Assembly (NCBI GenBank): GCA_963752285.1
Contig: CAVVXN010000005.1
Location: 288,001-352,000 of the forward strand
Direction of reading: 5' to 3'
DNA: 64,000 nt
From: an uncultured Planctomycetota bacterium
Lineage (GTDB): Bacteria; Planctomycetota; PLA2; JAEUHO01
Shown in pieces: positions 9,372 to 48,187 of the stretch. The translations under genes and the position numbers were made by a program. The stretch's first letter is position 1, and every line of letters starts with the position of its first letter. The notes under the pieces are model-generated. The model worked only from the letters and a program-made list of their open reading frames with translations, did not search any database and was not told the DNA's origin.

Positions 9372-9501
9372 TCGCGCGGAGCGTCGTCGCGACCGCATTG
9401 CGCGCTCGCTCCCGCCTACGTCCTCCAACTTGCGGCGGGTACGATCCGCTCGTCGTCGAGGATCGGCTCCCCTCGGACCCCGATCCGACGGAGGAGGGCC
9501 C

Positions 9502-10920
9502 ATGGCCGAGGACGTACAGGTCGAGTCCCGTCAGAGCATCGATCGCCAGTCGGCGCGCCAGCTCGCGACCACCACGAAGAGCGTGCCCCAGATGGTGGGG
9601 ATCACGCCGCGGCTCCTGCTGCGCCTCCTCCCCTGGGTGCAGGTCGAGTCGGGCACGTACCGCGTGAACCGCCGCCGCGCGGTCCCGCGCGACAGGGGTC
9701 GGCTGCGCGTCGACGTGACGAACGGGAGCGTCCGGCTCTCGGGCTCGGACCTCCAGAACGTCCCGCTGTTCAGGGACACCGACGGGAGGGTCCTCGACCA
9801 GCTCGCGAAGAAGTTCAAGACCGAGGTGTACAAACCCGGCCAGACGGTCGTCCAGGAGGGCGACGCCGCGGACCGGTTCTTCCTGGTCGCGCAGGGCAAG
9901 GTCGAGGCCTCCACGACGGGGCCGCACGGCGAGCGGCTGCGCCTCGGCGTCCTCGGCGACGGCGACTACTGCGGCGAGATGGCGCTCCTCTGCGACAGCC
10001 CGCGCATGGCCACGCTCACGTGTCTCACGCGCGGCGTGCTCCTCGCGCTGCCGAAGGACGAGTTCCAGGCGCTCCTCGGGAAGGCGCCGCGGCTCCAGGA
10101 CGAGCTCCAGGAGGCCGTCGACCGCCGGCTCCGTCTGCTCCGCGAGGTGAACGAGCACGGCGAGCGGCCGGTGCAGGTCGCGGCGAGCCACGACGGCGAG
10201 CCCGACGTGCCCGAGGTGATGCTCGACTACGAGACGGAGCCGCGCGAGTACCCGCTCTTCAGCGCGCAGACGATCGTCCGCGTCCACACGCGCGTCTCCG
10301 ACATCTTCAACCAGCCGATCAACCAGCTCCGCGAGCAGATCCGGCTCGCCATCGAGGGGCTGAAGGAACGGCAGGAGTGGGAGATGGTGAACAACGCGGA
10401 CTTCGGCCTGCTCCACCAGGCCGACCCGCTCATGCGGATCCCGACCCGCAAGGGGCCGCCCACGCCCGACGACCTCGACGAGCTGATCTCGCGCGTGTGG
10501 AAGAAGCCGGCGTACTTCCTGGCCCACCCGCGGGCCATCGCGGCGTTCGGGCGCGAGTGCACGCGGCGCGGCGTCCCGCCGGCGACCGTCAACGTGTTCG
10601 GGAGCCCCTTCCTCACGTGGCGCGGCATCCCGCTCTTTCCCTGCGACAAGGTCGAGGTGAAGAACGACGAGCGCGGCGCGGGCGAGACGAGCATGCTCCT
10701 GATGCGCGTCGGCGAGCAGGAGCAGGGCGTCGTCGGCCTCCACCAGACGGGCATCCCCGGCGAGCAGATGCCGAGCCTCTCCGTCCGCTTCATGGGCATC
10801 AACCAGCGGTCGGTCGCCTCGTACCTGGTCACGAACTACTACTCGGTCGCGGTGCTCACGCCGGACGCGCTGGGCGTGCTCGAAGGCGTCCAGGTGGGGC
10901 ACTACCATGAGTACGCGTAG
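9502..10920 (+). CDS. Family 2B encapsulin shell protein with inserted cyclic-nucleotide-binding domain
   Basis: SrpI/MMPI-type motifs [46 protein letters not shown] and LSVRFMGI; internal cNMP domain (VVQEGDAAD...[11 protein letters not shown]...PRMAT). Confidence 0.92.
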
Positions 10921-13198
10921 CGGCGCGAACGACCCCTCCGCCTGGGGGACGCTCGAGCCCCTCTTCCTGCCCGCTCCCTCGAGGAACGGCGCGGCGCCGA
11001 CGACCGGGCCCGCGGTGCCGTCCCCGCTCGGGAGCGCCGAGGGCGAGGCGAAGCCCGCGGTCCCGGCCGCGGGCGGCGGGGACCCGCGCGGACTGCCGCC
11101 GCAAGCTCTCGCCGTGGCGATCGGATCGGTTCCCGGCGGCACGGGCGCGCCCGGCTACTACTTCCTCCCGCTCCCCGGCGCGGCGTCGCTCCAGACGCCG
11201 GGCGACCTGTCCGCGGGCGTGCTCCCCTCGGCGCCGAGCGTCGTGCTCTGGCCCGAGACCGCGCCGCCCCCGACGCCGACGCCCACCGCCGAGGCGCCGG
11301 CGCCCGTGTCGCCCGCGACCGGCGCCGCCGATCCGTACGCGGACTCGGCCGTCTACTTCGGTGGACCGCGCGGGGCCCCGCCGGCGTCGGCACACCGGGC
11401 GCCGTCGGCCGAGGCTCCGGGCGGGCCGACCGCGCCCGTCGCGACGCCGTCGTCCCGGGGCACGACGTCCGTCGCGCCGCCCTCCGAGGTCTGGGGCGCG
11501 CCCGCGGCGCCGATCGCCGCGCCCTTCCTCCCGTCGCCCGACGCCGACCTCGACGTCTCCGGGGAGGACCACGACGGAGCGGGGGTCGATCCGCGCGGCG
11601 CCGCGCCGTCGGTCGCCCCGCCCGCACGCTCCGATGCCGGCGCCCTCGACGGACACGACCTCCCACCCGGCGTCCCGCCGCCCGCGAGCGCCGAGGACGC
11701 CGCGGCGCTCCGGCTCGCGCTCGACCTCCAGCGGCGGATCGACGGGCCGAGCGCGGCGCTCCAGGGCGAGCCGATCCGCCATGGCGAGCGCCTCGGCGCG
11801 GTACCGCACCTCCCGACGAGCGACGCGGGGATCCGCCGCCTCGTCTCGTCCGCATTCGGCCTCACGCCGCCGGAGGCGGCGACGGACGCGCCCGACGCGC
11901 CCGCCGTGCCCGGTCACGGGACGGCCCAAGACCTCTACTTCCTGCCCGCCGTGCCGCGCGTCGCCGCGCCGTCGGCGGACGGGTTCGACGTGAACGCCGT
12001 CCGCCGCGACTTCCCCGTGCTCCAGCAGAGGGTGCACGGGAAGCCGCTCGTCTGGTTCGACAACGCGGCCACCACGCAGAAGCCCCAGGCCGTCATCGAC
12101 GCGGTGTCCCGCTACTACGAGCAGGACAACTCGAACATCCACCGCGGGGCGCACGCGCTCGCGGCCCGCTCGACGGAGGCGTACGAGAATGCGCGGTCCA
12201 CGGTGCGCCGGTACCTCGGCGCGTCGCTGCCCGAGGAGATCGTGTTCGTCCGCGGTACGACGGAGGCGATCAACCTCGTCGCGAAGTCGTGGGGGCGGAA
12301 GAACGTCGGCCAGGGCGACGAGATCGTCCTGACGCAGCTCGAGCACCACGCGAACATCGTCCCGTGGCAGATGCTCGCGCAGCGCACGGGCGCGGTGCTC
12401 AAGGTCGTGCCCGTGACGGACCGCGGCGAGGTGATCCTCGAGGCGTACACGCGCCTCTTGGGCCCCCGCACGCGGCTGGTGGGGGTGACGCAGGTCTCGA
12501 ACGCACTCGGCACGGTGGTCCCCGTGAAGGAGATGGCGGTCCTCGCGCACCGGCACGGGGTGCCGATCCTCGTGGACGGCGCGCAGTCGATCCCGCACCT
12601 CCGGGTAAACGTCCAGGACCTCGACGCCGACTTCTTCGTGTTCTCGGGGCACAAGATCTTCGCGCCCATGGGCATCGGCGTGCTCTACGCGAAGAAGGAG
12701 CACCTCGAGACGATGCCGCCCTGGCAGGGCGGCGGCAGCATGATCCGGGACGTCACGTTCGAGCGGACGACCTACTCCGACCCGCCGGCGAAGTTCGAGG
12801 CGGGGACGCCGTCCGTCGCGGACGCGGTCGGCCTCGGCGCGGCGCTCGAGTACCTGGAGCGCCTCGGGATCGAGAACCTGGTCCGCTACGAGGACGAGCT
12901 GCTCCACTACGCGACGGAGTGCGTCGGCTCGATCCCCGGGATCCGCCTGATCGGGACGGCGGCGCACAAGGTGAGCGTGCTCTCGCTCCTGGTCGAGGGC
13001 GCGCGCGTGGAGGACGTCGGCCGGTACCTCGACGGCGAGGGGATCGCGGTCCGCGCGGGCCACCACTGCGCGCAGCCGACGATGCAGCGCTTCGGCATCT
13101 CGGGCACGGTCCGTCCGTCGCTCGCCTTCTACAACACGAAGGCCGAGGTCGACCGTCTGGCGACCGCGCTGCGCCGCTTCCGCCCCGGCCCCTCCTGA
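10907..13198 (+). CDS. sufS: SufS-type cysteine desulfurase with ~350-aa disordered N-terminal extension (encapsulin cargo)
   Basis: [30 protein letters not shown] and RAGHHCAQP; Pro/Ala-rich N-terminus; overlaps the encapsulin stop. Confidence 0.92.
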
Positions 13199-13229
13199 GG
13201 GGCACGTCGGGTCGCGGCCGCGCCAGGCG

Positions 13230-14926
13230 CGGTGAGGGGCGGCGGCCGAGCCGGGTCGGAAAGCCCCGGCCGTGACCGCCTCGTCGCTCGCCGCGGTCTC
13301 TCTCCGTGGGCGTCACGCGAGAGAGCGTCGGCCGGCCGGGGGCACGGGCGGCCCCGCCGCCGACGAGGGTCTACCGGCCGCGTCACCCGGAGCGCACCGC
13401 CCTCTACCAGGTGCTCGAGGCACGCTTCGAGGACTACCGGCGGGCGTACCCCGACCGCTTCGAGCCCGAGGCGGGCCCTTGGCGGAAGGAGATCGAGGAG
13501 GCGGTCTACGCGTACCTGGACTGCGGCCGCCTTCACGGGGGCTTTGCCCGCATTAGGTGCCCGAGGTGCGGCGCGGAGCACCTGCTCGCCTTCTCGTGCC
13601 GGACGAGGAACCTGTGTCCGTCGTGCCCGTCGAAGCGCTCGTGGGTCTTCGCGGAGTGGCTGGGGCGAGAGGTGCTGCTGGAGGTCGCGCACCGGCACGT
13701 GGTGTTCACGGTGCCCAAGCGGCTCCGGGGCCTGGTCGCGCGAGACCGGGCGCTCCACGGGGTGATGGCGCGGGCCGCCTGGGAGGTGCTCCGCGAGAGC
13801 CTCTCCGAAGCCGCCTCCGAACGAGAGGGCGCTCCGGGGGCGGTGATCTCGCTCCAGACGTTCGGGTCGTTCGGCGCGAACTTCCATCCCCACCTGCACG
13901 CGATCGTGACGGAGGGGGTGTTCACGAAGGACGGCCGGTTCCATCCCGTGATCTGGCCGACGCCGGCGCGCCTGGAGATGCGGTTTCGCCTACGTTTCCT
14001 GGGGGCGCTGGTGGAGGGGGGGCGGCTGCGGGCCGAGACGCGGTCGCGGTTCCTCGCCTGGTCGAGGTCGGGGTTCTCGGTGGACGCGACGCACCGGGTG
14101 GCGGCCGGCGAACGGGAGCGGGCCGAGCGGCTGGCGCGCTACGCGACGCGGGTGGTGCTGGCGACGGGGAAGGTGAGGCGGCTCGAGGGGGGCCGGGTGC
14201 GGGTCGAGACCCCCCCCGACCCGTGGACGGGTCGGACGTGGCTCGAGCTGGACGAGCTCGAGCTCGTCCACGCAGTGTGCCAGCAGGTGCCGTCCCGGGG
14301 GCGGCACCTCGTCCACTACTACGGGGTGTACGCGAACCGGCTTCGCCGGGCGTTCCGGGCGGCGCGAGCGGCGCGGGCGGGGGAGGAGGCGCCGACGGGT
14401 GGGGGGGCAAAGGGCCGGACGCCGGTCAAGCGGGGTCCGGAGGAGCGGGCCCCGGAGGCGTCGTCCGGGCCGACGTCGAGAGCCGCGTCCCTCAAGCGAC
14501 AGGCGTGGGCGCGGCTCCTGAGGAAGGTGTTCGAGGTGGACCCGCTGCTCTGTCCGCGTTGCCAGGAGACGATGGAGAAAGTGGCGTTGATCCTCGACCC
14601 GAAGACGGTGGAGCGAATCCTCAGCCATCGGCGCGAGCGAGGGCTCGAGTCGGCGTTCGAGGGGCCGCCCGCGAGGGCGCCGCCGGCGGCGCAGGGCGAA
14701 CGAAGAGACTTCGGGAGGAGGAGGGGGGCCGTCGTGTAGAGGCGGGCGGGAGCGGTACGTCCCCGTTGGCCGCCCCGGGCCTTGCGAGAGGGACCCAGAG
14801 TGCCGCGAATCCGGGCATGGGCCCGTACGGCGCAGATCCCGAGCGCGAGGAGGTGCGAAGCGGTCGACACAACCCTTGCGCGACCACGCGACGCCGCCCA
14901 CGACGAGGATTCAATGTCCTATGCGT
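13230..14926 (+). mobile_element. Full-length ISCR-like element (copy 1); ori end ...GAGGATTCAATGTCCTATGCGT; left end not defined
   Basis: Right end defined by where the repeated copies diverge; resembles the ISCR oriIS-type ending TCCTAT-purine-C. Confidence 0.8.
13306..14739 (+). CDS. ISCR/IS91-family rolling-circle (HUH) transposase, full length
   Basis: Zn domain C-x2-C...FSCRTRNLCPSC, HRHVVFTVPKRLR, HUH motif HPHLH, SGFSV, single-Tyr RLARYATR, and C-terminal WARLLRKVFEVDPLLCPRC...ARAPP. Confidence 0.92.
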   Translation: MGVTRESVGRPGARAAPPPTRVYRPRHPERTALYQVLEARFEDYRRAYPDRFEPEAGPWRKEIEEAVYAYLDCGRLHGGFARIRCPRCGAEHLLAFSCRTRNLCPSCPSKRSWVFAEWLGREVLLEVAHRHVVFTVPKRLRGLVARDRALHGVMARAAWEVLRESLSEAASEREGAPGAVISLQTFGSFGANFHPHLHAIVTEGVFTKDGRFHPVIWPTPARLEMRFRLRFLGALVEGGRLRAETRSRFLAWSRSGFSVDATHRVAAGERERAERLARYATRVVLATGKVRRLEGGRVRVETPPDPWTGRTWLELDELELVHAVCQQVPSRGRHLVHYYGVYANRLRRAFRAARAARAGEEAPTGGGAKGRTPVKRGPEERAPEASSGPTSRAASLKRQAWARLLRKVFEVDPLLCPRCQETMEKVALILDPKTVERILSHRRERGLESAFEGPPARAPPAAQGERRDFGRRRGAVV

Positions 14927-20331: not shown

Positions 20332-20348
20332 TGCGTGAGGTGGCGGGC

Positions 20349-21497
20349 ATGAGCTGGCGAGCATCCGCTCTCCTTGTGCTACTGCTTTCGGTCGACAGTA
20401 CTCTACCCCAGTCGACTGCACGCGGAGCAGGCAACAACCGCCTGTCCGATATCGTCGAGATGGTTGACGACCACTTCTTCTTGATGAAGCCAGATAAGAC
20501 AAGATGGGCCCTGGTCTACTCGGAGCAACGATCGTGCAGAGATGGCTTCCTGGGGGGCCTGGGGATCAGGACACACGAAGCGCAGGGTCGGGATGAGGTC
20601 AGGACCTTCGATTGGCGAGAGTTGCGATTTGAGAAGTCCGATGGGTGGGTTGAGGTCGGAGTAGAGGGGATCTTGAGGCGCAGGGTGGTCGAATTGCGGG
20701 GGCAGACAGATGGCGGCAGTGTCGGCAAGATACTGCGGATCCAGCGCGCCAGGATGCCGGACAGGGCATCCCCCGAGCTGGAGGTGGTCCTGCTGCGTGG
20801 TTGCATCGCATGGTTCACTAGACACGCACACGACCAGCGCCGACGGCGCGCGGCCGTGCTTGGCGAAATCGCTGACAGTCTCGATGTCATCGCGGCAGCA
20901 TGCCCCGCGGAGAGGTCGACCCTCCTTGCGGGCCAGCTGGGTGATCTCTGGGCGACAAGCGCGGTGCTTGACTACGCGAGTGAATTGTCCGTGCGTGGAG
21001 GGGTTGGGCAGCGACTGCATTGGTACGTCACAAGTGGCCTTGTGGGTAGTTATGGTCCAGAGGTAAGGAGCCTGGTGGAGAACTGGCCCAGTGAGGTTGA
21101 GTTGGCCGACGCCGGGGGCAGCACGGAGGACCTGGTTAGGTCGCTTTGGAGCCAACATGGATGGTCGGCCGTTACACCAGGGTGGCCGGACGTGTTCCTG
21201 GACGAGCGTCCTGAGAGCCCTGCTATGCGGATCCTGAGGAGGGGGGAAGCAGTACTACCCACTCTGCTTGATTCTCTCAGCAACGCTACTCCGACGCGCA
21301 CCCTAGCACGAGACGCGTACCCTGGTGGGCTGCCAGCGCTCCTGCGAATCGGCGATGTTGTCGGGCAGGTGCTGGAGAAGTTGCTGGATCAACGGCTACC
21401 TCGCCGGAGCCTCGCGGATGAGGGTCTGGAAGCCTGGGCGCGTCGCGTGCGGCGCGCCATTGGATCTCGTGGTGCGCGGCCGAAGCCAGGCGGCTGA
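20349..21497 (+). CDS. Putative cognate immunity or secreted helical protein downstream of the Rhs tip
   Basis: Directly follows the toxin stop, same lower GC, signal-peptide-like start, HEAT-like C-terminus. Confidence 0.55.
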   Translation: MSWRASALLVLLLSVDSTLPQSTARGAGNNRLSDIVEMVDDHFFLMKPDKTRWALVYSEQRSCRDGFLGGLGIRTHEAQGRDEVRTFDWRELRFEKSDGWVEVGVEGILRRRVVELRGQTDGGSVGKILRIQRARMPDRASPELEVVLLRGCIAWFTRHAHDQRRRRAAVLGEIADSLDVIAAACPAERSTLLAGQLGDLWATSAVLDYASELSVRGGVGQRLHWYVTSGLVGSYGPEVRSLVENWPSEVELADAGGSTEDLVRSLWSQHGWSAVTPGWPDVFLDERPESPAMRILRRGEAVLPTLLDSLSNATPTRTLARDAYPGGLPALLRIGDVVGQVLEKLLDQRLPRRSLADEGLEAWARRVRRAIGSRGARPKPGG

Positions 21498-21690: not shown

Positions 21691-22721
21691 TGACCTGGCC
21701 GACGCCGGCGCGCCTGGAGATGCGGTTTCGCCGACGTTTCCTGGGGGCGCTGGTGGAGGGGGGGCGGCTGCGGGCCGAGACGCGGGCGCGGTTCCTCGCC
21801 TGGTCGAGGTCGGGGTTCTCGGTGGACGCGACGCACCGGGTGGCGGCCGGCGAACGGGAGCGGGCCGAGCGGCTGGCGCGCTACGCGACGCGGGTGGTGC
21901 TGGCGACGGGGAAGGTGAGGCGGCTCGAGGGGGGCCGGGTGCGGGTCGAGACCCCCCCCGACCCGTGGACGGGTCGGACGTGGCTCGAGCTGGACGAGCT
22001 CGAGCTCGTCCACGCAGTGTGCCAGCAGGTGCCGTCCCGGGGGCGGCACCTCGTCCACTACTACGGGGTGTACGCGAACCGGCTTCGCCGGGCGTTCCGG
22101 GCGGCGCGAGCGGCGCGAGCGGCGCGGGCGGGGGAGGAGGCGCCGACGGGTGGGGGGGCAGAGGGCCGGACGCCGGTCAAGCGGGGTCCGGAGGAGCGGG
22201 CCCCGGAGGCGTCGTCCGGGCCGACGTCGAGAGCCGCGTCCCTCAAGCGACAGGCGTGGGCGCGGCTCCTGAGGAAGGTGTTCGAGGTGGACCCGCTGCT
22301 CTGTCCGCGTTGCCAGGAGACGATGGAGATCGTGGCGTGGATCCTCGACCCGAAGACGGTGGACCGAATCCTCAGCCATCGGCGCGAGCGAGGGCTCGAG
22401 TCGGCGTTCGAGGGGCCGCCCGCGAGGGCGCCGCCGGCGGCGTAGGGCGAACGAAGAGACTTCGGGAGGAGGAGGGGGGCCGTCGGGAGAGGCCGTCGTG
22501 AGAGGCGGGCGGGAGCGGTACGTCCCCGCTGGACGCCCCGGGCCTTGCGAGAGGGACGCAGAGTGCCGAGAATCCGGGCATGGGCCCGTACGGCGCAGAT
22601 CCCGAGCGCGAGGAGGTGCGAAGCGGTCGACACAACCCTTGCGCGACCACGCGACGCCGCCCACGACGAGGATTCAATGTCCTATGCGTCGCCCACGACG
22701 AGGATTCAATGTCCAATGCGT
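21691..22721 (+). mobile_element. 5'-truncated ISCR-like copy 2 with tandemly duplicated ori terminus
   Basis: Near-identical to ~13950-14926; terminal 32 bp repeated at 22690-22721. Confidence 0.92.
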
Positions 22722-25069: not shown

Positions 25070-26287
25070 CAAGCGGCTCCGGGGCCTGGTCGCGCGAGAC
25101 CGGGCGCTCCACGGGGTGATGGCGCGGGCCGCCTGGGAGGTGCTCCGCGAGAGCCTGTCCGAAGCCGCCTCTGAACGAGAGGGCGCTCCGGGGGCGGTGA
25201 TCTCGCTCCAGACGTTCGGGTCGTTCGGCGCGAACTTCCATCCCCACCTGCACGCGATCGTGACGGAGGGGGTGTTCACGAAGGACGGCCGGTTCCATCC
25301 CGTGATCTGGCCGACGCCGGCGCGCCTGGAGATGCGGTTTCGCCGACGTTTCCTGGGGGCGCTGGTGGAGGCGGGGCGGCTGCGGGCCGAGACGCGGGCG
25401 CGGTTCCTCGCCTGGTCGAGGTCGGGGTTCTCGGTGGACGCGACGCACCGGGTGGCGGCCGGCGAACGGGAGCGGGCCGAGCGGCTGGCGCGCTACGCGA
25501 CGCGGGTGGTGCTGGCGACGGGGAAGGTGAGGCGGCTCGAGGGGGGCCGGGTGCGGGTCGAGACCCCCCCCGACCCGTGGACGGGTCGGACGTGGCTCGA
25601 GCTGGACGAGCTCGAGCTCGTCCACGCAGTGTGCCAGCAGGTGCCGTCCCGGGGGCGGCACCTCGTCCACTACTACGGGGTGTACGCGAACCGGCTTCGC
25701 CGGGCGTTCCGGGCGGCGCGAGCGGCGCGAGGGCGCGGGCGGGGGAGGAGGCGCCGACGGGTGGGGGGGCAGAGGGCCGGACGCCGGTCAAGCGGGGTCC
25801 GGAGGAGCGGGCCCCGGAGGCGTCGTCCGGGCCGACGTCGAGAGCCGCGTCCCTCAAGCGACAGGCGTGGGCGCGGCTCCTGAGGAAGGTGTTCGAGGTG
25901 GACCCGCTGCTCTGTCCGCGTTGCCAGGAGACGATGGAGATCGTGGCGTGGATCCTCGACCCGAAGACGGTGGACCGAATCCTCAGCCATCGGCGCGAGC
26001 GAGGGCTCGAGTCGGCGTTCGAGGGGCCGCCCGCGAGGGCGCCGCCGGCGGCGTAGGTCGAACGAAGAGACTTCGGGAGGAGGAGGGGGGCCGTCGTGAG
26101 AGGCGGGCGGGAGCGGTACGTCCCCGTTGGCCGCCCCGGGCCTTGCGAGAGGGACGCAGAGTGCCGAGAATCCGGGCATGGGCCCGTACGGCGCAGATCC
26201 CGAGCGCGAGGAGGTGCGAAGCGGTCGACACAACCCTTGCGCGACCACGCGACGCCGCCCACGACGAGGATTCAATGTCCTATGCGT
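25070..26287 (+). mobile_element. 5'-truncated ISCR-like copy 3
   Basis: Near-identical to ~13716-14926; ends TCCTATGCGT. Confidence 0.92.
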
Positions 26288-26682: not shown

Positions 26683-26922
26683 ACCCGGGGCCACGCCGAG
26701 GGGGACGACGTGGTCCACCTGCGTAGCGGGCTCGGTCAGCCCCCGGCGCGCGCATTCCCGGCAGAGGGGCTCCTCGCGCAGAACCTGGGCCCGCACGGCC
26801 TGCCAGCCGGCGGACCCGTGGATGCGGGCCACGACGGGGTCGCGGCGGGTGCGGTTGTACTCCGCGTCCGCATGGCGGCGGCTGCGTAGGATCCCAGCGA
26901 GCGTGCGCGGCTTCGAAGGCAT
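26683..26922 (-). pseudogene. Phage-type small HNH endonuclease, 3'-truncated
   Basis: W-x3-RAQVLREEPLCREC...ATQVDHVVP; lacks the NL-x-x-LC-x2-CH tail. Confidence 0.8.
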
Positions 26923-27198
26923 CGGTGCCTCGGCTCGCGCCGGCTGGGATCAGCGCCCTGGGAGCCTACCACGCCAGAGCGACGTGCAAACCCAGATGCC
27001 CTGCGGGCCAACCCTCCGAGCCGACATGCGCAGCGCGAACCTCGGCTCCGTTCCATCCGCGGCGCTCCATCCGCAGTGCGGTCAGCGCGGGGCCCTGATC
27101 AGATTGGAGTCGTGCGTGTCGTCGACTCATGGGCCTAAAGCCCATGGCTGAACGGCCTGAGGAGCGTACAATCCCTCCTGTGAATTGGGAGGTACCAC

Positions 27199-29903: not shown

Positions 29904-30503
29904 TGTACGCGAACCGGCTTCGCCGGGCGTTCCGGGCGGCGCGAGCGGCGCGGGCGGGGGAGGAGGCGCCGACGGGTGGGGGGGCAGAGGGCCGGACGCC
30001 GGTCAAGCGGGGTCCGGAGGAGCGGGCCCCGGAGGCGTCGTCCGGGCCGACGTCGAGAGCCGCGTCCCTCAAGCGACAGGCGTGGGCGCGGATCCTGAGG
30101 AAGGTGTTCGAGGTGGACCCGCTGCTCTGTCCGCGTTGCCAGGAGACGATGGAGATCGTGGCGTTGATCCTCGACCCGAAAACGGTGGACCGAATCCTCA
30201 GCCATCGGCGCGAGCGAGGGCTCGAGTCGGCGTTCGAGGGGCCGCCCGCGAGGGCGCCGCCGGCGGCGTAGGGCGAACGAAGAGACTTCGGGAGGAGGAG
30301 AGGGGCCGTCGTGTGGAGGCGGGCGGGAGCGGTACGTCCCCGTTGGCCGCCCCGGGCCTTGCGAGAGGGACCCAGAGTGCCGAGAATCCGGGCATGGGCC
30401 CGTACGGCGCAGATCCCGAGCGCGAGGAGGTGCGAAGCGGTCGACACAACCCTTGCGCGACCACGCGACGCCGCCCACGACGAGGATTCAATGTCCTATG
30501 CGT
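29904..30503 (+). mobile_element. 5'-truncated ISCR-like copy 4
   Basis: Near-identical to ~14328-14926; ends TCCTATGCGT. Confidence 0.92.
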
Positions 30504-30777
30504 CGTCCCCGGGGAGGACCTCGACGGGGCGGGGGCCGGTCCGCGCGGCGCCGCGCCGTCGGTCGCCTCGCCCGCGCGCCCCGAGGCGGGCCTCCTCGAC
30601 GGACACGACCTCCCGCCCGGCGTCCCGCCGCCCGCGAGCGCCGAGGACGCCGCCGCGCTCCGGCTCGCGTTCGACCTCCAGCGGCGGATCGAGGGGCCGA
30701 GCACGGCGCTCCAGGGCGAGCCGATCCACCAGGGCGAGCGCGTCGGCGCGGCGCCGCACCTCCCGACGAGCGACGCG
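30504..30777 (+). repeat. Diverged 274-bp copy of the cysteine desulfurase N-terminal region (11554-11827)
   Basis: Colinear and gap-free by eye, about 22 substitutions (~92% identity); starts exactly at the ori end. Confidence 0.92.
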
Positions 30778-30797
30778 TGGACCCGTGCGGAGCGCGG

Positions 30798-33488
30798 TTA
30801 CTTGCCCAACGAGCTGCTGAGCCTCACCCTGATCACGTCGGCGCCTCGTTCCGGCGAGAGGGCCGACGCGTACCAGGCTTCCTCTGCTCCTTGTGCCCGC
30901 CCGGCAACGGAAACCGGAAATCGATCAGGATGGATCCACACGGTCAGGACCCGTCCAAAGAGTAGTGCGCCTCCGCCACAGCCCGCTCCCTTGCGATCGC
31001 TGACTTGGACCAAGAGCCATGGAGACTCGGAGCCCATCTCTCGAGGCGGCGACACCTCCAATCGGATCGCCTGCTCGAAGCGAAGGGAGAGCTCGAGCTC
31101 GCGGCCCGCGACCGCCGGCACCGCCGGCGCATCGAGGTGCCCGAGGCGTGATGCGGTTTCGGGCGGGGGGCGCGCCGAGGCCATGAGGTCGCTGCCGGTC
31201 GGGATGCCGTCGAAACGACACGTGCCGGAGTCGTCCGTAACTCCATTCCAGGGGAAGGACCCCTCCCGTCCCCGGAGGATTACGAGGGCGCCGCTCGCCG
31301 GCTCGCCGGAGGGGCCGTAGACCCTGACGCGGATCGCGGCGCACCCGGGAGCGCGCCGGGCGACCACGCGCACCTGTCCCGCTCCATCGGAGGGCACTCT
31401 CGCTTCTCCCTGCCAAGGCGACGGCGAACGCAGGATCTCTCCCCATGCGACCTGCATTCGTTCGCTCCGGAGCACGAGCCGGCACGCACTGGGCGTCCCG
31501 GCCGGACAGCCGAGGTCGAAGACCCCGCTCCCAGTCGTCCACGTCGAGGCGATGCGTTCTCCGTCCGCCTGAACCAAGTCCACCCCGACCCCTGCGACTC
31601 GCCCCCCCCCCTCGGTCACGACCAGCCCGCGAATCGAACGCCGGGGACGTAACGTGACCTCGATCTCCTGCTTGCCGCGCGCCTGTGATGCAGCAAGCTC
31701 CTCTCGCATCCAGCGCCCGCCGTCCGTGGCGCCGGGATCGACGATGACTAGGCGCGAGTCGTCGGCGAGAAAGACTCGGGCCCGACCCAGAAGGTCTGTC
31801 GTGACGCCGTAGATGCCTGCGCTCGTCTGCACGGCCACCGTGCACTCCGGGAGTGGTTCCCCGATCGAGGTCAGTACGCGCACATCGATCGGCTTCCCTG
31901 GCGTGGTACAGGTTCGCAACTCGACTCTGGCGACTTGCCCCGAGCGGACGTGGACCTCCTGCGCCACGTAGGGCGCACCGGGAACACGCGCAACGACGCG
32001 GTAGGCCCCGACACCAAGTCCCTCGAAGCGGAAGGCACCCGTGCTGTCGGTGTAGCTGCTGGCGTCTCCGGACCGCGCCCGTGGCCCTTCGGAGACGTAG
32101 GGAGCATCGCAGACATCGGAGTTCCTCTGGACCAGCGCCACGACCGTATCGACGCACGGGGCGTCCCCCGCTCCTAGGACTGTCCCCTCGATCGTCCCCG
32201 CGGTCTCCATGCGTAGCACGGGTAGGACCCACTCCGGCGGCGCGTCGGGGGGCAGCGGCGCTTCCACGGAAAGCTGGCCGAGAAGTGGAGCGCCCACCTC
32301 TACCAGGCACCGGTCCCCGGGCGCCGCACCCTCCACGCGGAATGCACCGTCCCCCCCGGATTTCGCCCGCCCGGTGGGTACCCACGCTCGGTCGGATCGC
32401 GACCAGACCGAGGCCCGCACCTCGGCCGCGGCGACCGGCGCTCCATCCGTCCCGACCACTGATCCCACCAGCGCGACCGAGTGGCGAAGGCACACTTGTA
32501 CATTCTCCCCCTCGTCGGCGATCTGCACGCTTGCCGGAGCGTAGCCCACCGCTCGTACCAACAACCTTCTCTCGTCGTGGGTCTGCGGAGACCAGCCGGG
32601 TAGCGTGAAGCGGCCGCTGGCGTCACTGCTGACACCCGCGCCGAACTGCCCTGTGGCGCGTATGGATGCTCCACTGACACCCCGCCCGTCAGCGCAATCG
32701 AATACCGTGCCACGCAGTGTCAGCCCGCCAGGGAGCGTCAACTCGAGGCAGCGCTCTGGCTCGCTGCCGATCCAGGCGGTCGCCGCACTGGACCCGAATA
32801 CGTCATGCTGAGCGAAGACCGTGCACTTGCTTCCTCTGGGTGCATCGAGATGGCACAGACCCTCGGGGCCCGTGACGCCATCTGCGGACCCGAGTGGTTG
32901 GTCCCCCCGGTAGTAGGCTCGGACCGTTGCGTCTCCCGCTGGCCCGCCGTCCGGAGCAAGCACCCGCACGAGGAGGCTGGTTGTCGCACGGAGCACGACT
33001 CGAAGCACCTGTCCCGCGCAGACGCCACGACGACGAACGGCAACATACCCCGTGAATGTCGCGGAAAGCTCGTAGCGGAGTCCGGTGCGGGCAGGTAGAG
33101 CGAAACCGCCCGCCGTATCCGTCCGCTGCTCGGAGGAGGCCCCCATCTCGGGCCCGTCGAGCGAGGCCGATTCCTGCAGCTGGACGAGAACGCCGGTGAT
33201 GGGGGTTCCATCGGCATCGACTACTACTCCACGTACCTGCGCGCTGCCGATCGCCGCGTGTCGAGTCACCGCCTGCGGCGGATCCCCCGCGAGCGTCGCA
33301 TGCTGGTGATCCCCGTTGGGGCGCGGCTCGGCGCGGGAGCGGTGCTGGGTTCGGACAGAGCGCACGTCCATGCGTCCGTGTGCCAAGAGGATGCCGACCA
33401 TCGCCAAGGCAGCGGCTGCCACGGCCGTAAGCCCCAAGTTCCGGCCGGTGAACCGCGAAGCAACCAAGCGCGACACCTCCAACGACAA
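30798..33488 (-). CDS. Membrane-anchored protein with multiple carboxypeptidase-regulatory-like domains
   Basis: Repeated G-x-V-x-D-x-x-G-x-P-(I/V)-x-GA and TD-x-x-G-x-F motifs; N-terminal TM. Confidence 0.8.
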   Translation of the reverse strand: MSLEVSRLVASRFTGRNLGLTAVAAAALAMVGILLAHGRMDVRSVRTQHRSRAEPRPNGDHQHATLAGDPPQAVTRHAAIGSAQVRGVVVDADGTPITGVLVQLQESASLDGPEMGASSEQRTDTAGGFALPARTGLRYELSATFTGYVAVRRRGVCAGQVLRVVLRATTSLLVRVLAPDGGPAGDATVRAYYRGDQPLGSADGVTGPEGLCHLDAPRGSKCTVFAQHDVFGSSAATAWIGSEPERCLELTLPGGLTLRGTVFDCADGRGVSGASIRATGQFGAGVSSDASGRFTLPGWSPQTHDERRLLVRAVGYAPASVQIADEGENVQVCLRHSVALVGSVVGTDGAPVAAAEVRASVWSRSDRAWVPTGRAKSGGDGAFRVEGAAPGDRCLVEVGAPLLGQLSVEAPLPPDAPPEWVLPVLRMETAGTIEGTVLGAGDAPCVDTVVALVQRNSDVCDAPYVSEGPRARSGDASSYTDSTGAFRFEGLGVGAYRVVARVPGAPYVAQEVHVRSGQVARVELRTCTTPGKPIDVRVLTSIGEPLPECTVAVQTSAGIYGVTTDLLGRARVFLADDSRLVIVDPGATDGGRWMREELAASQARGKQEIEVTLRPRRSIRGLVVTEGGGRVAGVGVDLVQADGERIASTWTTGSGVFDLGCPAGTPSACRLVLRSERMQVAWGEILRSPSPWQGEARVPSDGAGQVRVVARRAPGCAAIRVRVYGPSGEPASGALVILRGREGSFPWNGVTDDSGTCRFDGIPTGSDLMASARPPPETASRLGHLDAPAVPAVAGRELELSLRFEQAIRLEVSPPREMGSESPWLLVQVSDRKGAGCGGGALLFGRVLTVWIHPDRFPVSVAGRAQGAEEAWYASALSPERGADVIRVRLSSSLGK

Positions 33489-33497
33489 CCCGACCTT

Positions 33498-34817
33498 CTA
33501 CGTACGCGGTTGCCTCGGGTCCAAAACTGGCCGTCGAACCAACAGCCAGATCATGCCTCCCAGCACCGCTCCAAGGAGGAGCCAGCGCAGCCGCTCCAGC
33601 AAGGGCCGGGTCAACCTCCCCGAGGGCGTCCCAGCCGGGAGCGCGGGCGCCGAACCTCCGTGGGGCTCGACGTCGTCGCTGAGGACACTTCGAGATCCAT
33701 CGGGGCCAAATCGGTACCTTACTCTCATCGGTTCGTCCAGGACATCGACGACCTCACCTCCGAGGTCCGGCGGCAACTCCGGCCACGCGCCCTCCCCCTC
33801 CGGCGCTGAACGGATGGACTGCAAGAAGTAGGCGGTCACCGAACGCCTTCCGCTTCCCCTCCCCTTGGGCACGTCGTACAGGGTGGTCCATACCACGCGC
33901 GGGACAAACACTCCGTCCGGGCCATTCATCCACTCAAGAACCCTGTGACAGGACCGAACCGCCTTCGCGATTCGCAGAGCTTCGGCACTCTGCGTCTTCG
34001 CTACAAGTGTCACGAGTTCCTTGGGGTCTCCGCGCGCGAAGAGCGTCTCTTCGGGAACGTCGGGCGAGGCGGCTCCGAAGAGCACGATCGCTGCCCCATC
34101 CCGTGCTCCGTTCGTCCAGAGCACGCGGACGGATTGCCCCCACGGCGTCGCCGCCGCGACGCTCTCTCGCGTGCGGAGGAATTCTGGCCACGGCCTGCCG
34201 GGAAGCGTCAAGTAGGAGCCGCGCAAGAGCGGGACGTCCAGCGGCCGGTCTCGGCCGTTCGAGGTGCGGATGCCGGTCCAGGCCGGGTTGCCGGGCGCCG
34301 CGCCAGCCTCTCGCGTGAAGTACGTCCTGCGACGCCCGTCGTCATAGACGATCCGTTCGAATGCGGAGGGTAGGCGTCTCGTCGCGAATGCGAGCCACCA
34401 GGCCTCCTCCCGGACGACGGCATCGTCCACGTGCTCCTCGGCACTGCCGCGGGACGCACGATAGATGGCGCTCTCGAGCTCGGCGCGGTCACGGTCGAGA
34501 ACGAGCCTGTGCCGCCCCCCACCCCAGACCACGCCATCATCCGGGTGCCAGTCCACCTCCAGATACTCGTAGGTGCAGGACTGCAGGATACGGAGAGCGG
34601 CGGTTACAGAGCTCTTGGCCGGGGGCGAGTCGTCCTCTGCACGGGCGACCGCCGTCCCTCCCGCTACAAGAATCGCGATCACGGCGATAGCGAAGGGATC
34701 CCGCCATCGGATCGGCCGCGGACCGAGCCGCGCCATCGACTGGACGTGGGAAAGGATCGCAGCCTTGGGTGCGCGGCTCACGGCGCGTCGGAGCCCGTAT
34801 GCGTATCGATGTCTCAT
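33498..34817 (-). CDS. Hypothetical exported protein with C-terminal TM helix
   Basis: Signal-like FAIAVIAILVAGGTAVARA and C-terminal WLLLGAVLGGMIWLLV; start uncertain. Confidence 0.6.
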   Translation of the reverse strand: MRHRYAYGLRRAVSRAPKAAILSHVQSMARLGPRPIRWRDPFAIAVIAILVAGGTAVARAEDDSPPAKSSVTAALRILQSCTYEYLEVDWHPDDGVVWGGGRHRLVLDRDRAELESAIYRASRGSAEEHVDDAVVREEAWWLAFATRRLPSAFERIVYDDGRRRTYFTREAGAAPGNPAWTGIRTSNGRDRPLDVPLLRGSYLTLPGRPWPEFLRTRESVAAATPWGQSVRVLWTNGARDGAAIVLFGAASPDVPEETLFARGDPKELVTLVAKTQSAEALRIAKAVRSCHRVLEWMNGPDGVFVPRVVWTTLYDVPKGRGSGRRSVTAYFLQSIRSAPEGEGAWPELPPDLGGEVVDVLDEPMRVRYRFGPDGSRSVLSDDVEPHGGSAPALPAGTPSGRLTRPLLERLRWLLLGAVLGGMIWLLVRRPVLDPRQPRT

Positions 34818-35595
34818 GGTCGTTTCCCGTTCGCTCACAATTCGCCCCGGACCACGCGGATGCGAAGCGGCTGGGAGGGACCGTCCCGCGCCCGGACCGA
34901 ACCTTCGAGTACGTTCCCATCCGAGAGTTTGGTCGAAGCTGTGAATTCCAGGATGGCCCACCGCAGTCATCGGACTTCCCGCGCCCCGATTCAGCGCGCG
35001 CTGCGCTTCCGCGTCGATGAGCGGGAGCGCTCTCCATCCCTGCGGAGTTCCGCAGGGGCGGTCGGCGTGCATGACTTTGATCAGCTCGCGCGCCGCCACC
35101 GCTGCGAGCCAACCACGCTCGCGCCGCACCGCGGCGCCTTGGCGTTCTGCAAGGAAGGCAGCCACAAGCACCCGGTGCGCGACTCTTTCTCCCAGCATAG
35201 CACTTCCGGCCCAGGAGGCCATCGCGCCCACCAGAGCCGGCCGGCCACGGGACCACCACTGATCGAGCAGGGATGCGTCACCCGATCTCGCCGCACCAAG
35301 CGCGATGAAGAGCCCCTCGACGGGGCAGGGGAGGCGTGGACCCTTGAAACGGGTTCGCAGCCCGGGTCCGGTGTTGCCACTCGGCCTCCGTCGCCGGAGA
35401 CGATCCACATCGCGACAATACCACACAGGCCCGTGTCGTCGTGCCCCCGAGTCCCTTCGAATGAGGGTTGTGGGCTCCTCGCTGTCCTGAATGGGTGGCG
35501 TGGCGGCCGGAGCCAACCTGGCCCCCGTCGGGAGGCTGCCGGATCAGCCCTTCCTACCTTCAAAACCACTACTCTGGCTCCGCGGGCCAATCTTC

Positions 35596-35745
35596 TGGGG
35601 CCCGCGGTCTGAAATGTCACCACTTTCCCCGGTCTGCGGGTGCGCAGCGGTCCGGAACGGGCGTGCGTCCGCCGGCCGCAATCGGAGGGGGTGCGGGCAG
35701 GGTGTGGCTGCGTGGGCCGCGGTGCGCCCGGGAGGAGGACGGCAT
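35596..35745 (-). mobile_element. IS21-family end remnant
   Basis: TG-N12-TGAAATGTCACCACTTT, homologous to the IS21 end at 40431-40575. Confidence 0.65.
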
Positions 35746-35769
35746 CCGGGGTCGGGCGGTGGAGCGCGG

Positions 35770-35989
35770 GTTCCAGCCGGGCTTCGACCAGCGGCGCCTG
35801 GAGACGCTGGCGACGCGCGGCTACATCCGCGAGCACGAGAGCGTCCTGATCCAGGGCCCGCCGGGGATCGGCAAGACGCACCTGGCGGTGGCCCTGGGCG
35901 TGAAGGCCGTCGAGTGCGGGTTCTCGGTGGCCTTCCACCGGCTCGACGACCTGCTCCACGTGCTCCGGCGCGACGCGGACGTCCCTTGA
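35770..35989 (+). pseudogene. istB: IstB AAA+ ATPase internal fragment
   Basis: HESVLIQGPPGIGKTHLAVALG Walker A. Confidence 0.85.
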
Positions 35990-35994
35990 CAGTC

Positions 35995-36115
35995 GGAGCC
36001 TCGGGTCGCGGAGGTCGATGCCCTCGAGCACGCGCAGGAGCTCGCGCGGCGAGGTCTCGACCTTGGCGCCGGACACGCTCGCCGGCCACGCGAAGGTCCC
36101 CGCGGTCGAGGACCC
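35995..36115 (-). pseudogene. IS66 TnpB C-terminal fragment
   Basis: GTFAWP...SPRELLRVLEGIDLRDPRL, homologous to TnpB at 38405-38758. Confidence 0.8.
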
Positions 36116-36143
36116 CCTTTGGGTCCCCCATCTGGTCGAGGAG

Positions 36144-36441
36144 CATCGGCGCGAGCGAGGGCTCGAGTCGGCGTTCGAGGGGCCGCCCGCGAGGGCGCCG
36201 CCGGCGGCGTAGGGCGAACGAAGAGACTTCGGGAGGAGGAGAGGGGCCGTCGTGTGGAGGCGGGCGGGAGCGGTACGTCCCCGTTGGCCGCCCCGGGCCT
36301 TGCGAGAGGGACCCAGAGTGCCGAGAATCCGGGCATGGGCCCGTACGGCGCAGATCCCGAGCGCGAGGAGGTGCGAAGCGGTCGACACAACCCTTGCGCG
36401 ACCACGCGACGCCGCCCACGACGAGGATTCAATGTCCTACG
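36144..36441 (+). mobile_element. 5'-truncated ISCR-like copy 5 (shortest; end variant TCCTACGC)
   Basis: Near-identical to ~14626-14921. Confidence 0.9.
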
Positions 36442-36949
36442 CCTAGCCGAAGCCGAATTCCACAGCGCAGCGCAGAACATGTGGGATCTCATGGGCGGCC
36501 AAGGCGCTGTGCCGCGGGGCGGACCGATCTCGGACGCAGACCTAGTCCGGCTGGCCCGCCTGGATGCAATGGCGTTCGGGAATTGGATTGCGAACGCTGC
36601 GTCTCTCCGGGAGAACGACCGGTACAAGGTCGTGCCCCAGCCAGATCCCTACGATCGGAGGGCGGTAGGTGGGTACGACCCGGAAACGGGCGATATTGGC
36701 TTCAAGACCTCCTACATGGACAATAACGCCGAGAGATTCAAGAACGGTGACTGGCTCGGGGAGGCTCGGACAGTGGCAACTCTTTTGCATGAAGTCCGAC
36801 ACGCTGAGCAGGGGCCGACCGAGTCACGTGACCATCCGCCCGATCCAGGTAGAGGAGACGTCCCTGCGGGAACGTCGGAATGACAACGTGTCGATCGGCA
36901 CGACGCCAAGGACATCGTGGACTTTGCGAAACGGGCATGGGGAAGGTGA
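36442..36949 (+). pseudogene. Orphan HExxH metallopeptidase toxin-tip fragment fused to the ori
   Basis: GGYDPETGDI...ATLLHEVRHAEQ; reading frame is open from the ori junction; lower GC. Confidence 0.6.
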
Positions 36950-40430: not shown

Positions 40431-40984
40431 TGCGACCAGCGGTCTGAAATGTCACCACTTTCCTCGGTCTGGAGGTGCGCAGCGGTCCGCAGTGGGCGTG
40501 GGTCGACCGGCCGCGACCGGAAGAGGTGCGGGCAGGGAGTGGCTGCGTGGGCCGCGGTGCGCCCGGGAGGAGGTTCGCTACGCCGGCGGGGCGGCGGTCT
40601 CGGGAGGCAGTCGGTAGGAACTTCCCTCGATCGTGACGATCTCGCTGTGATGGGCGATGCGGTTGATCACTGCATCCGCGACCGTGGCGTCGTGAAACAC
40701 CGACGCCCATTCCTTGAAGGGGCGGTTCGTCGTCAGGATCACCGAGCCTCGCTCGTAGCGGCCGGAGATGACCTGGAAGAGGAGATCCGCTCCGTGACGG
40801 TCGATGGGCAGGTAGCCGAGCTCATCGAGGCAGAGAACGTCGGGGGGCAGGTAGGAACGTAGTCGTTTGAGGAACGTGCCGTCGCTCTGGGCGGCGTGCA
40901 GGTGGTTCACCACGTTGATCGCCGTGGTGAAGAGCACGCGGTGTCCCCTCTGGCAGGCGGCGTAGCAGAGCGCAGAGGCGAGGT
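40431..40984 (-). mobile_element. istB: IS21 right-end remnant with istB 3' half (stop at 40578)
   Basis: LCLDELGYLP, RYERGSVILTTN and RIAHHSEIVTIEGSSYR; TIR TGCGACCAGCGGTCTGAAATGTCACCACTTT. Confidence 0.88.
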
Positions 40985-41630
40985 GGGTCGAGACCCCCCC
41001 GACCCGTGGACGGGTCGGACGTGGCTCGAGCTGGACGAGGTCGAGCCCGTCGACGCAGTGTGCCAGCAGGTGCCGTCCCGGGGGCGGCACCTCGTCCACT
41101 ACTACGGGGTGTACGCGAACCGGCTTCGCCGGGCGTTCCGGGCGGCGCGAGGGCCCCGGAGGCGTCGTCCGGGCCGACGTCGAGAGCCGCGTCCCTCAAG
41201 CGACAGGCGTGGGCGCGGCTCCTGAGGAAGGTGTTCGAGGTGGACCCGCTGCTCTGTCCGCGTTGCCAGGAGACGATGGAGATCGTGGCGTTGATCCTCG
41301 ACCCGAAGACGGTGGACCGAATCCTCAGCCATCGGCGCGAGCGAGGGCTCGAGTCGGCGTTCGAGGGGCCGCCCGCGAGGGCGCCGCCGGCGGCGTAGGG
41401 CGAACGAAGAGACTTCGGGAGGAGGAGGGCGGCCGTCGTGTGGAGGCGGGCGGGAGCGGTACGTCCCCGTTGGCCGCCCCGGGCCTTGCAAGAGGGACCC
41501 AGAGTGCCGAGAATCCGGGCATGGGCCCGTACGGCGCAGATCCCGAGCGCGAGGAGGTGCGAAGCGGTCGACACAACCCTTGCGCGACCACGCGATGCCG
41601 CCCACGACGAGGATTCAATGTCCTATGCGT
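40985..41630 (+). mobile_element. 5'-truncated ISCR-like copy 6 (internal ~80-bp deletion near 41150)
   Basis: Matches ~14201-14926; ends TCCTATGCGT. Confidence 0.92.
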
Positions 41631-46750: not shown

Positions 46751-47061
46751 GGCCGCCGGCGCGCCCCCCGGAGCCTCGCGACGCGCGAATTCCCGGAGGC
46801 GGCGCATTCTAGCCACCGCAGGGCGCGGCCCGGTCCCCACGGCGAGGTTTCCCCGCCAGGGGGATCGGTGCGGGCGCACACACGGACGGTCCTCGTGGCG
46901 GGACCTAAGCGCGTAGCAGGTCACGGGCGTTCGGATACCCTCCTCGCCCCGCGGATCGGCGGCTCCCCGTGGAGGCGAGCCGTGCGCCGGCGGGCTGGGC
47001 GGGGGATCTGGGCGTGTGTCGTGGGAGCGGCGGTCGACGCGCTTCCCGAGGAGGTCATTCG

Positions 47062-47569
47062 ATGCATGCTTCGAAGATCTGGATCGTGGTGGCGGTGGCG
47101 GTGGCCGCCGGGTTCTTCGGCGGTCGTGCGTGGACGGGAGAGGACGAGCAGCCCTCGGGCGGCATGGATCCGTCGCTCATGCAGCCGGGCGAGGAACACA
47201 AGGCGATGGCCGACGTCGTCGGCACCTGGGATCTCGTCAGCGAGATGACGGCGCCGGGCGGCCAGACGATGTCGACGAAGGGGACGGCGACGTTCGAGAT
47301 GATCCTCGGCGGTCGCTATCTCGTCCAGAAGGTGAAGGCCGATCCCATGATGCCCGGCGGCGGCCCGTTCGAGGGTCTGGGCATCGAGGGCTACGACCGC
47401 GTGGCCAAGCAGCACTTCTCGACGTGGTTCGACAACATGGGCACCGGACACATGGACAGCACCGGCCAGCGGTCGGAGGACGGCAAGGTCCTCCACGATG
47501 ACGGGCGAGGGCGACTTCGGCGAGGGACCGATGAAGTACCGCGAGGTCATGACGAAGACGGGCCCCGAC
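47062..47569 (+). pseudogene. DUF1579-like exported protein, 3'-truncated by ISCR copy 7
   Basis: PGEEHK...VGTW, ILGGRYL, FEGLGIEGYD and WFDNMGTG; GAGGAGG RBS. Confidence 0.75.
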
Positions 47570-47917
47570 TCGTGGCGTTGATCCTCGACCCGAAGACGGT
47601 GGACCGAATCCTCAGCCATCGGCGCGAGCGAGGGCTCGAGTCGGCGTTCGAGGGGCCGCCCGCGAGGGCGCCGCCGGCGGCGTAGGGCGAACGAAGAGAC
47701 TTCGGGAGGAGGAGGGGGGCCGTCGTGTGGAGGCGGGCGGGAGCGGTACGTCCCCGTTGGCCGCCCCGGGCCTTGCGAGAGGGACCCAGAGTGCCGAGAA
47801 TCCGGGCATGGGCCCGTACGGCGCAGATCCCGAGCGCGAGGAGGTGCGAAGCGGTCGACACAACCCTTGCGCGACCACGCGACGCCGCCCACGACGAGGA
47901 TTCAATGTCCTATGCGT
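47570..47917 (+). mobile_element. 5'-truncated ISCR-like copy 7
   Basis: Matches ~14579-14926; ends TCCTATGCGT. Confidence 0.92.
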
Positions 47918-48187
47918 GGGGCAGAGGTTCGACCGTACGAACGCGAGTTCGGGGGCCACGGCCAGGGGGACGATGTGGTCCACCTGCACGGCGAGGACGG
48001 TCAGCCCGAGGCGCGCGCACTCCCGGCAGAGCGGCTCGTCGCGCAGCACCTGGGCACGCACGGCCTGCCAGCGGGCGGACCCGTGGATGCGGGCCACGAC
48101 GGGGTCGCGGCGGGTGCGGTTGTACTCCCGGTCCGCGTGGCGGCGGGTGCCTAGGATCCCAGCATGCGTGCGCGGCTTCGAAGGCAT
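47918..48187 (-). pseudogene. Phage-type HNH endonuclease (second copy), truncated exactly at the ori
   Basis: PLCREC...VDHIVPLAVAPELAFVRSNLCP then ori; paralog of 26683-26922. Confidence 0.85.

Follow-up and report, generated by a model that had tools for sequence, protein, structure and literature searches.

A desulfurase gene fragment joined to the ori end of an IS91-family element may be a scar of one-ended rolling-circle transposition

Introduction

ISCR elements can take along a piece of the gene lying upstream of them or leave a duplicate of it downstream, as in the case of the truncated groEL and the 3′-CS. In eukaryotes, the Helitrons are rolling-circle transposons with a Y2 HUH enzyme, and a missed termination captures fragments of neighbouring genes, which leads to decaying pieces fused to the element end. 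They differ from the element described here in being eukaryotic, in encoding a Rep-helicase fusion protein and in the direction of read-through, which is opposite relative to the gene.

For the IS91 family, one account (PMC13181058) describes transposition that begins at oriIS and finishes at terIS, with a failure of termination in 1–14% of events for IS91 and IS1294, whereby adjacent DNA is co-mobilised. The same account names single-stranded circles with joined ends as functional intermediates, the bottom-strand circle as the substrate for insertion and CTTG/GTTC as the target tetranucleotides (PMC13181058). The mechanism of ISCR transposition is without experimental proof, as stated in another source (PMC13393415), and because of this, natural footprints of read-through have some value.

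Here, we describe such a candidate footprint in an uncultured Planctomycetota bacterium, in which a piece of a cysteine desulfurase gene is fused to an ori end. The analysis concerns one stretch of 64,000 nt, called the window throughout, and its coordinates are those of the window unless a contig is named (C1 to C5 for the contigs of the same assembly).

Results

An IS91-family element at the head of an array of truncated copies

The window contains one intact element (hereafter the master, Table 1), which starts about 70 bp past the desulfurase stop codon and whose transposase is the sole full-length copy in the genome by tblastn. The family of the transposase is read directly from profile matches (PF04986, 3.4e-20; PF14319, 3.1e-18; NF033538, 165.1 bits with a cut-off of 125), which identify it as an IS91-family Y2 HUH enzyme with a zinc-binding N-terminal domain. 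The left end of the master is approximate, at ~13271, the position from which a further 5′ fragment, located on contig C2, is homologous to it.

With IS91, IS801 and IS1294/IS1294b, the master shares this type of transposase, its zinc-binding N-terminal domain and a precise end downstream of the transposase gene. The locus would also recall the family in its read-through, which in IS91 members co-mobilises the DNA beyond the other side of the element, with circular intermediates whose ends are joined (PMC13181058). Unlike the known IS91 members, it heads an array of seven 5′-truncated copies, and its transposase does not exceed 34% identity with any match from 72,556 plasmid records; the CTTG/GTTC tetranucleotide does not stand beside its ori ends, and a terIS is not recognised within 13001–13500, where the ori terminus was found neither as a direct nor as an inverted copy (up to 6 mismatches in 20).

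The likeness extends to the ISCR elements (ISCR1 in complex class 1 integrons, and the ISCR3-group/ISCR27), which have an exact oriIS boundary with variable DNA beyond it and truncated copies that keep the oriIS side. The terminal ...TCCTATGC.. of the master presumably resembles the ISCR oriIS ends. The transposase scores 150.8 bits on the ISCR clade Ia model NF052416, compared to a cut-off of 925, and the element is not of clade Ia. Unlike the ISCR elements, it is found with Rhs, HNH, kinase and unknown genes rather than with resistance genes, and in an uncultured high-GC environmental bacterium.

Table 1. Main features of the window, in order of position.
Feature	Coordinates	Strand	Remarks
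Family 2B encapsulin shell gene (cNMP-binding domain and SrpI-like fold)	9430..10920	+	PF19307 1.2e-117, PF00027
Encapsulin-cargo cysteine desulfurase, 763 aa	10907..13198	+	Pfam PF00266 1.4e-140
Source segment of the duplicated piece	11554..11835	+	aa 217–309, desulfurase N-terminal region
Only intact IS91-family element (master)	13271..14926	+	transposase 13306–14739; ori-like end 14926
Ori copy 2	21691..22721	+	element positions 751–1728, then tandem repeat of the last 32 bp (22690–22721)
Ori copy 3	25070..26287	+	element positions 518–1728
Ori copy 4	29904..30503	+	5′-truncated transposase 3′ part, positions 1129–1728, plus ori end
Desulfurase fragment fused to ori copy 4	30504..30785	+	92% identical to 11554–11835, 82.6% GC
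CarboxypepD_reg-repeat protein, 896 aa	30798–33488	−	Pfam; within the cargo (30798..35516) of the fragment's block
672-aa protein without a family	33498–35516	−	unrelated cargo of the fragment's block
Ori copy 5	36144..36444	+	element positions 1428–1728; closes the block opened by the desulfurase fragment
Ori copy 6	40985..41630	+	element positions 1003–1178 joined to 1249–1728
Ori copy 7, truncated series	47572..47917	+	element positions 1383–1728

The ori end lies 187–232 bp past the stop codon. All eight window copies, and a further one at C5:911488, stop at the same base, with flanks that differ from the very next base onward (ends in Table 1; copy 2 proper ends at 22689 and its self-repeat at 22721). 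The eight ends in the window read ...GGATTCAATGTCCTATGCGT, with ...CTACGCCT in one of them. Hence, an oriIS-type end that is distinct, has an exact boundary and is located downstream of the transposase gene, as in the IS91 family, is present. The second mark of the family, a target tetranucleotide of the CTTG/GTTC type beside the ori ends, was not found, and the adjacent bases (CTGG, AAGC, with CGCC for the 32-bp repeat, CCGC, CGTC, AGCC, GTGC, GGGG and AGTC) show no consensus on either strand. The 32-bp repeat after ori copy 2 carries one substitution.

The truncated transposase remnants are all in one orientation, are 96–99.7% identical to one another and are spaced by 2.3–6.8 kb of unrelated DNA; a termination-like or target motif was found neither at the six truncation points nor at the ori flanks. 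Where they cover these positions, the six truncated copies share differences from the master (at 14579–80, 14613, 14692, 14738 and 14806), and they have a TAG stop codon where the master has CAG and continues for 15 codons. From these shared differences, the truncated copies therefore descend from a variant other than the master or were homogenised to it. Relics of the element are also present 620 kb away on the minus strand (C5:911488–912372 and 907638–907806), one of them being an ori end with 103 bp left that is interrupted by a 677-bp insert.

The blocks between the ori copies

The DNA between the ori copies carries an Rhs gene, HNH endonucleases, a Ser/Thr kinase, IS66, IS21 fragments and genes without a family. 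In the block that the desulfurase fragment opens, the 672-aa protein was left unmatched by 24 of 25 relatives at E ≤ 1e-10, and in the remaining one (G012) the matches were only partial. The truncated copy 7 is flanked by two different cut genes, a DUF1579 gene (+) and an HNH gene (−). Because of these two cut genes, and because the ori flanks have no common tetranucleotide, the blocks are mosaics whose ends are arbitrary, rather than simple insertions into continuous DNA.

Other observations concern single genes and repeats of the region. The DUF1579 gene (46969–47571, +) has an apparent frameshift near its end and is cut off by the truncated copy 7, and the HNH copy that opens the last block has its C-terminal end cut by the ori junction. 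The HNH genes belong to a family with at least six copies of 84–91% identity, found in the window (26687–26971 and 47918–48236, −) and at C5:2156117–2183924. A diverged repeat of ~285 bp (26687–26971 and 47952–48236) was considered as a second capture and rejected, as it is part of this multi-copy endonuclease family. The Rhs/YD-repeat gene behind the master (15349–21497, +) is split into four overlapping frames (15349–18042, 17891–18919, 18820–20331 and 20088–21497), either by frameshifts or by long-read indel errors, and pieces of it, 92–95% identical, are located on contigs C1 and C2. A 138-bp repeat of 89% identity (35601–35738 and 40436–40573), ~410 bp to the left of two truncated transposase copies, adjoins IstB (IS21) fragments and an IS66 and is probably the end of another insertion sequence.

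The encapsulin operon beside the master

The operon adjoining the element begins with the encapsulin shell gene, whose product scores 621.8 bits on NF041163 (cut-off 400). The desulfurase that follows reaches 557 bits on the SufS model TIGR01979 (cut-off 475) and 773 bits on NF041166, just below the cut-off of 800 and by its catalytic part only. Its PLP domain starts at about aa 360, far behind the duplicated residues, and is preceded by a long disordered N-terminal region, for whose 360 aa no family match was found in Pfam or NCBIfam. The locus thus shows the arrangement that marks a family 2 encapsulin system with desulfurase cargo, in which the shell gene adjoins a desulfurase whose N-terminal extension is long and disordered.

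The N-terminal coding region (10907–12000, +) is not DNA-alignable even within the genus, and a short motif, ALxxALDL...HLPTSD, is kept in it despite this divergence. When aa 190–330 were used as the query of a word-indexed search of 5.8 billion protein clusters, no relative other than the window's own protein was returned.

A desulfurase fragment fused to ori copy 4

The first-pass annotation had reported a gap-free 274-bp copy of 11554–11827, ~92% identical, that starts at the base after ori copy 4 and derives from the desulfurase gene ~1.7 kb upstream of the transposase in the same orientation, and each of these points was reproduced. The two segments (30504–30777 and 11554–11827) align without gaps and with 22 mismatches in 274 positions (92.0% identity), and a BLASTN search of the window against itself extends the match to 285 bp (11551–11835 and 30501–30785, 91.2%, E 5e-112). 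The left edge of the fragment is exact, as can be seen directly, since 30504 is the first base past the conserved end of ori copy 4 and all ori copies stop at the equivalent base; its right edge is fuzzy, between 30777 and 30785. At the joint, the ori end and the desulfurase gene have just 2–3 bases in common. The source segment is located inside the desulfurase ORF, 1752 bp upstream of the transposase start (13306), and its orientation, also observed directly, is that of the fragment. It includes a motif (11 residues followed by ...HLPTSD) that is also present in the ortholog of the same genus.

In the assembly (4.64 Mb in 5 contigs, 89% complete), the fragment and its source are the only two copies detected by BLASTN. 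Two more desulfurase paralogs (C5:1819181 and C3:311517) have no DNA match to the fragment. An unlinked paralog as the source, the case that the first-pass annotation had set against its own reading, was hence not encountered in the assembly, the unassembled 11% excepted.

The GC content of the fragment is 0.826, compared to 0.805 for the segment of the master gene and 0.689 for the remaining 5.4 kb of the block (30786–36143), and the fragment is host-lineage DNA joined to foreign-looking cargo. By eye, it has no in-frame start codon near the junction, with both ATGs of the ori end out of frame, and it has no stop codon in the desulfurase frame. The convergent 896-aa gene has its stop codon 13–20 nt away from the right edge. 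The fragment is probably a non-functional relic.

Divergence and the search for a donor

The fragment is more diverged from the master locus than the ori copy to which it is joined (22/274 compared to 10 substitutions in 600 bp, without gaps and with 98.3% identity, for ori copy 4; Fisher p 1.5e-5), a difference of about fivefold. The 22 differences affect 20 codons, 5 with a synonymous and 15 with a non-synonymous change; they are distributed 7/6/9 over the three codon positions and include no indels. By the Nei–Gojobori method, dS is 0.083, dN is 0.086 and dN/dS is 1.03; a value of 0.3 or less is unlikely (p 0.006) and one of 0.5 is compatible with the data (p 0.09). By eye, 12 differences are in the first 90 bp and 10 are in the other 184 bp, which contain the motif shared with the genome of the same genus (G001). 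When G001 was used as the outgroup, five sites were informative, of which three have the ancestral state in the master and two in the fragment, as read by eye from a poor alignment. The orthologs of two further relatives (G009 and G011) do not align over the duplicated region.

A bias towards synonymous changes, proposed as a check on the origin of the fragment, was therefore not seen, and there is no sign of purifying selection. Because dN/dS is 1.03, a functional allele from a related strain is not favoured over neutral decay, and the pattern fits a decaying old copy and an allele of a fast-evolving, weakly constrained region alike.

A closer donor, the second check proposed, was found neither among 40 relatives nor in two public contig collections nor in the search of 5.8 billion proteins. 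Outside this genome (G000), the DNA search of the 40 relatives gave short GC-rich chance matches alone, none of them longer than ~100 nt. In the collections of metagenome contigs and of species-representative genome contigs, the best 80 loci of each for desulfurase aa 1–398 covered aa 294–398 only, in scans (pattern and tblastn) that rest on six peptide patterns and may miss relatives. G001 has an orthologous encapsulin–desulfurase pair with 65% protein identity, whose N-terminal region is not DNA-alignable. The donor would therefore be a very close relative or the organism's own ancestor.

The ~8% divergence had been ascribed to an old capture or a foreign allele, which remains a fair reading as the excess divergence is real, and the sequence data fit either of the two. 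Three histories fit: a capture that preceded the divergence of the ori copies, a concerted evolution of the ori copies, or a block from a sister strain in which the gene is 8% different and the element is near-identical.

Arrays and relics in related genomes

In G001 (locus L020), two relics of an IS91 transposase (C10:228025–228369 and 232941–233045) share the strand of the orthologous desulfurase and follow it at 6.5 and 11.4 kb downstream, with 51–65% protein identity to the element described here. The island downstream of the desulfurase is wholly different in G001 and in this genome. The suggested long-lived association of the element with the encapsulin locus is at most hinted at by the positions of these relics, in a genome that has 12 IS91 matches in all.

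G009, from another genus of the same family, has an array at C8:272582–300552 (loci L197 and L198), 36 kb from the desulfurase and on the opposite strand, in a genome with 23 IS91 matches. A near-full copy (aa 10–463) is at the left, and four 5′-truncated copies follow to its right in the same orientation. All of the copies but one end in ...ATTCAAATGCCTATGCAT and then have different flanks. The G009 transposase is 60–64% identical to the one described here, the last ~35 nt of the ori end are conserved and the flanks diverge at the same position. Hence, this genome is not alone in having an intact copy at the left with truncated copies to its right.

Discussion

We consider the desulfurase fragment to be, with a probability of roughly 55%, the scar of one-ended (read-through) rolling-circle transposition by the IS91-family element, a reading drawn from sequence comparison. 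The rolling-circle mode of this element is itself suggested by the junction between an ori end and the upstream gene and by the structure of the array. The transposase would nick an ori end, and the displaced strand would run through the transposase gene, past a weak or missing termination end and into the desulfurase gene ~70 bp upstream. The strand would then be cut at the position equivalent to 11554, and its 3′ end would be joined to the 5′ end of its own ori, with a circle as the result, or of the ori of a resident copy; in either case, the exact junction of ori and 11554 would be created. The product may have entered the ori array by, for instance, homologous recombination in the shared transposase–ori sequence, and a later deletion or replacement would have removed everything past ~11835. 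Alternatively, the source locus may have been rearranged beforehand, in which case the entire 5.9-kb block would be one read-through product. With a divergence of 8%, the event would be old relative to the similar ori copies, or the source would be the ortholog in a closely related strain.

Read-through is supported, firstly, by the base of the junction, which is the same as in 7 other ori copies of the window and in one elsewhere in the genome, and by the location of the only other copy of the fragment, which lies, in the orientation that a read-through needs, within the immediate upstream neighbour of the one intact element. The IS91 family of the transposase, with its known failures of termination, points the same way. 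Under random insertion, a source next to the master would be a coincidence of the order of one gene in thousands. It is further supported by the lack of a terIS-like inverted ori end upstream of the transposase, by the GC content of the fragment, which fits the host gene segment and not the rest of the block, and by ori copy 2 with its own last 32 bp, which is another case of an ori joined to the sequence behind an ori. The ori flanks without a shared target tetranucleotide and the two cut genes around copy 7 also argue for it.

The simplest form of the model does not account for the whole block. The first-pass annotation had proposed a circle from ori through the transposase into the upstream DNA, closed at 11554, with which the exact junction, the orientation and the unique upstream source agree; the fragment, however, stops after ~282 bp and abuts unrelated DNA of 69% GC. 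Since the colinearity with the master ends there, while a simple circle predicts 11836–13198 followed by the transposase, at least one extra event is needed. Another route of integration is also needed, because the transposase-mediated insertion of a circle would destroy the junction between ori and the far end. As the fragment is 8% diverged and ori copy 4 is 1.7% diverged, one has to assume in addition that the ori copies evolved in concert, that the event is old or that the DNA came from a foreign donor, which was not found. A motif resembling a termination site was looked for at 11554, as was a target motif; neither was found, and the absence of the former counts against read-through.

The alternative that survives best, which we nevertheless consider unlikely, is an ordinary or local insertion of an ori-bearing copy into a desulfurase gene, the resident one or that of a relative, at 11553/11554, so that the fragment would be the target and not captured DNA. 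This is the commonest way in which insertion sequences gain a precise junction between end and flank, but the DNA to the left of ori copy 4 (to 29903) is unlike the desulfurase gene up to 11553, and the other half of the target is missing. Recombination or transfer would later have to set an intact desulfurase–element unit upstream and delete the rest of the interrupted gene, about three further events in all, although the 8% divergence is easily obtained if the gene and the fragment are two alleles united by recombination. The orientation and the position of the source beside the master would require local hopping or coincidence, and the CTTG/GTTC target is absent beside all of the ori copies, even if the region is an island rich in mobile elements (IS66, IS21 fragments, IS110 and Rhs).

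A deletion adjacent to the element is a still less probable origin of the junction. Here, a tandem duplicate of the desulfurase–element unit would have lain downstream of ori copy 4, and an intramolecular event would have removed the DNA from ori to 11554, which yields an exact ori junction in the right orientation. The direct arrays of ori copies show that duplication of the element sequence has happened at this locus, but the presupposed duplicate of the desulfurase unit has left nothing else, a second break at ~11835 is still required, and the duplication would arise most simply from read-through transposition itself.

It is very improbable that metagenome assembly wrongly attached a piece of the desulfurase allele from a second strain to one of the repeated ori copies. 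The genome looks like a metagenome-derived assembly, given its contig number and completeness, and the repeats of the array, at 0.3–1.2 kb and with the high identity given above, are hard to assemble. However, a misjoin driven by repeats is not expected from a homology of 2–3 bases at the joint, nor would it hit the exact base where every other ori copy ends, and DNA other than desulfurase is present on both sides of the fragment. Ten public sequencing runs were found, each holding at most 24% of the sampled words, and in the contigs of the four best runs the coverage is restricted to 29904–30504, the transposase–ori part. Among these, a soil contig (X1) runs past ori into the first 13 bases of the block behind the master and a wetland contig (X3) runs past ori into a flank absent from this genome.

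That the fragment has kept a function, as an expressed decoy with the cargo-loading motif or as a regulatory or terminator element for the convergent gene, is scarcely credible, as there is no in-frame start codon near the junction, dN/dS is 1.03 and phenylalanine replaces a conserved leucine of the motif in the fragment, even though the motif region shared with the ortholog of the same genus (ALRLA-DLQRR, HLPTSD) is kept with no stop codon in frame and ISCR1 ori ends bear outward promoters, according to PMC13393415.

One-ended transposition thus offers the better account of the junction, and the event itself is of a familiar type, found here in a new and distant member of the IS91 family. Read-through capture is the presumed route by which resistance and virulence genes are spread by the IS91 and ISCR elements, and an ori end joined to the element's own upstream neighbour is the footprint that the read-through model predicts. 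In this case, the footprint occurs far from clinical bacteria and in a distant family member. For the host locus, the finding that no relative of aa 190–330 of the desulfurase turned up among 5.8 billion clusters shows that the cargo-loading region of the encapsulin desulfurase evolves very fast.

For the array as a whole, we tentatively raise a further idea, to which we give little weight: the array, headed by an intact IS91-type element, may work as a cassette system in which the ori ends serve as recombination sites, with units of cargo, truncated transposase and ori excised from ori to ori and re-inserted behind any resident ori. If this were true, read-through into the flanking DNA would give rise to new cassettes, and the desulfurase fragment would be the scar left by the birth of one of them at the array's chromosomal anchor, either in this lineage or in a sister strain. 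G009, from another genus, shows this architecture as well. That arrays of truncated copies recur suggests that they grow in a systematic way.
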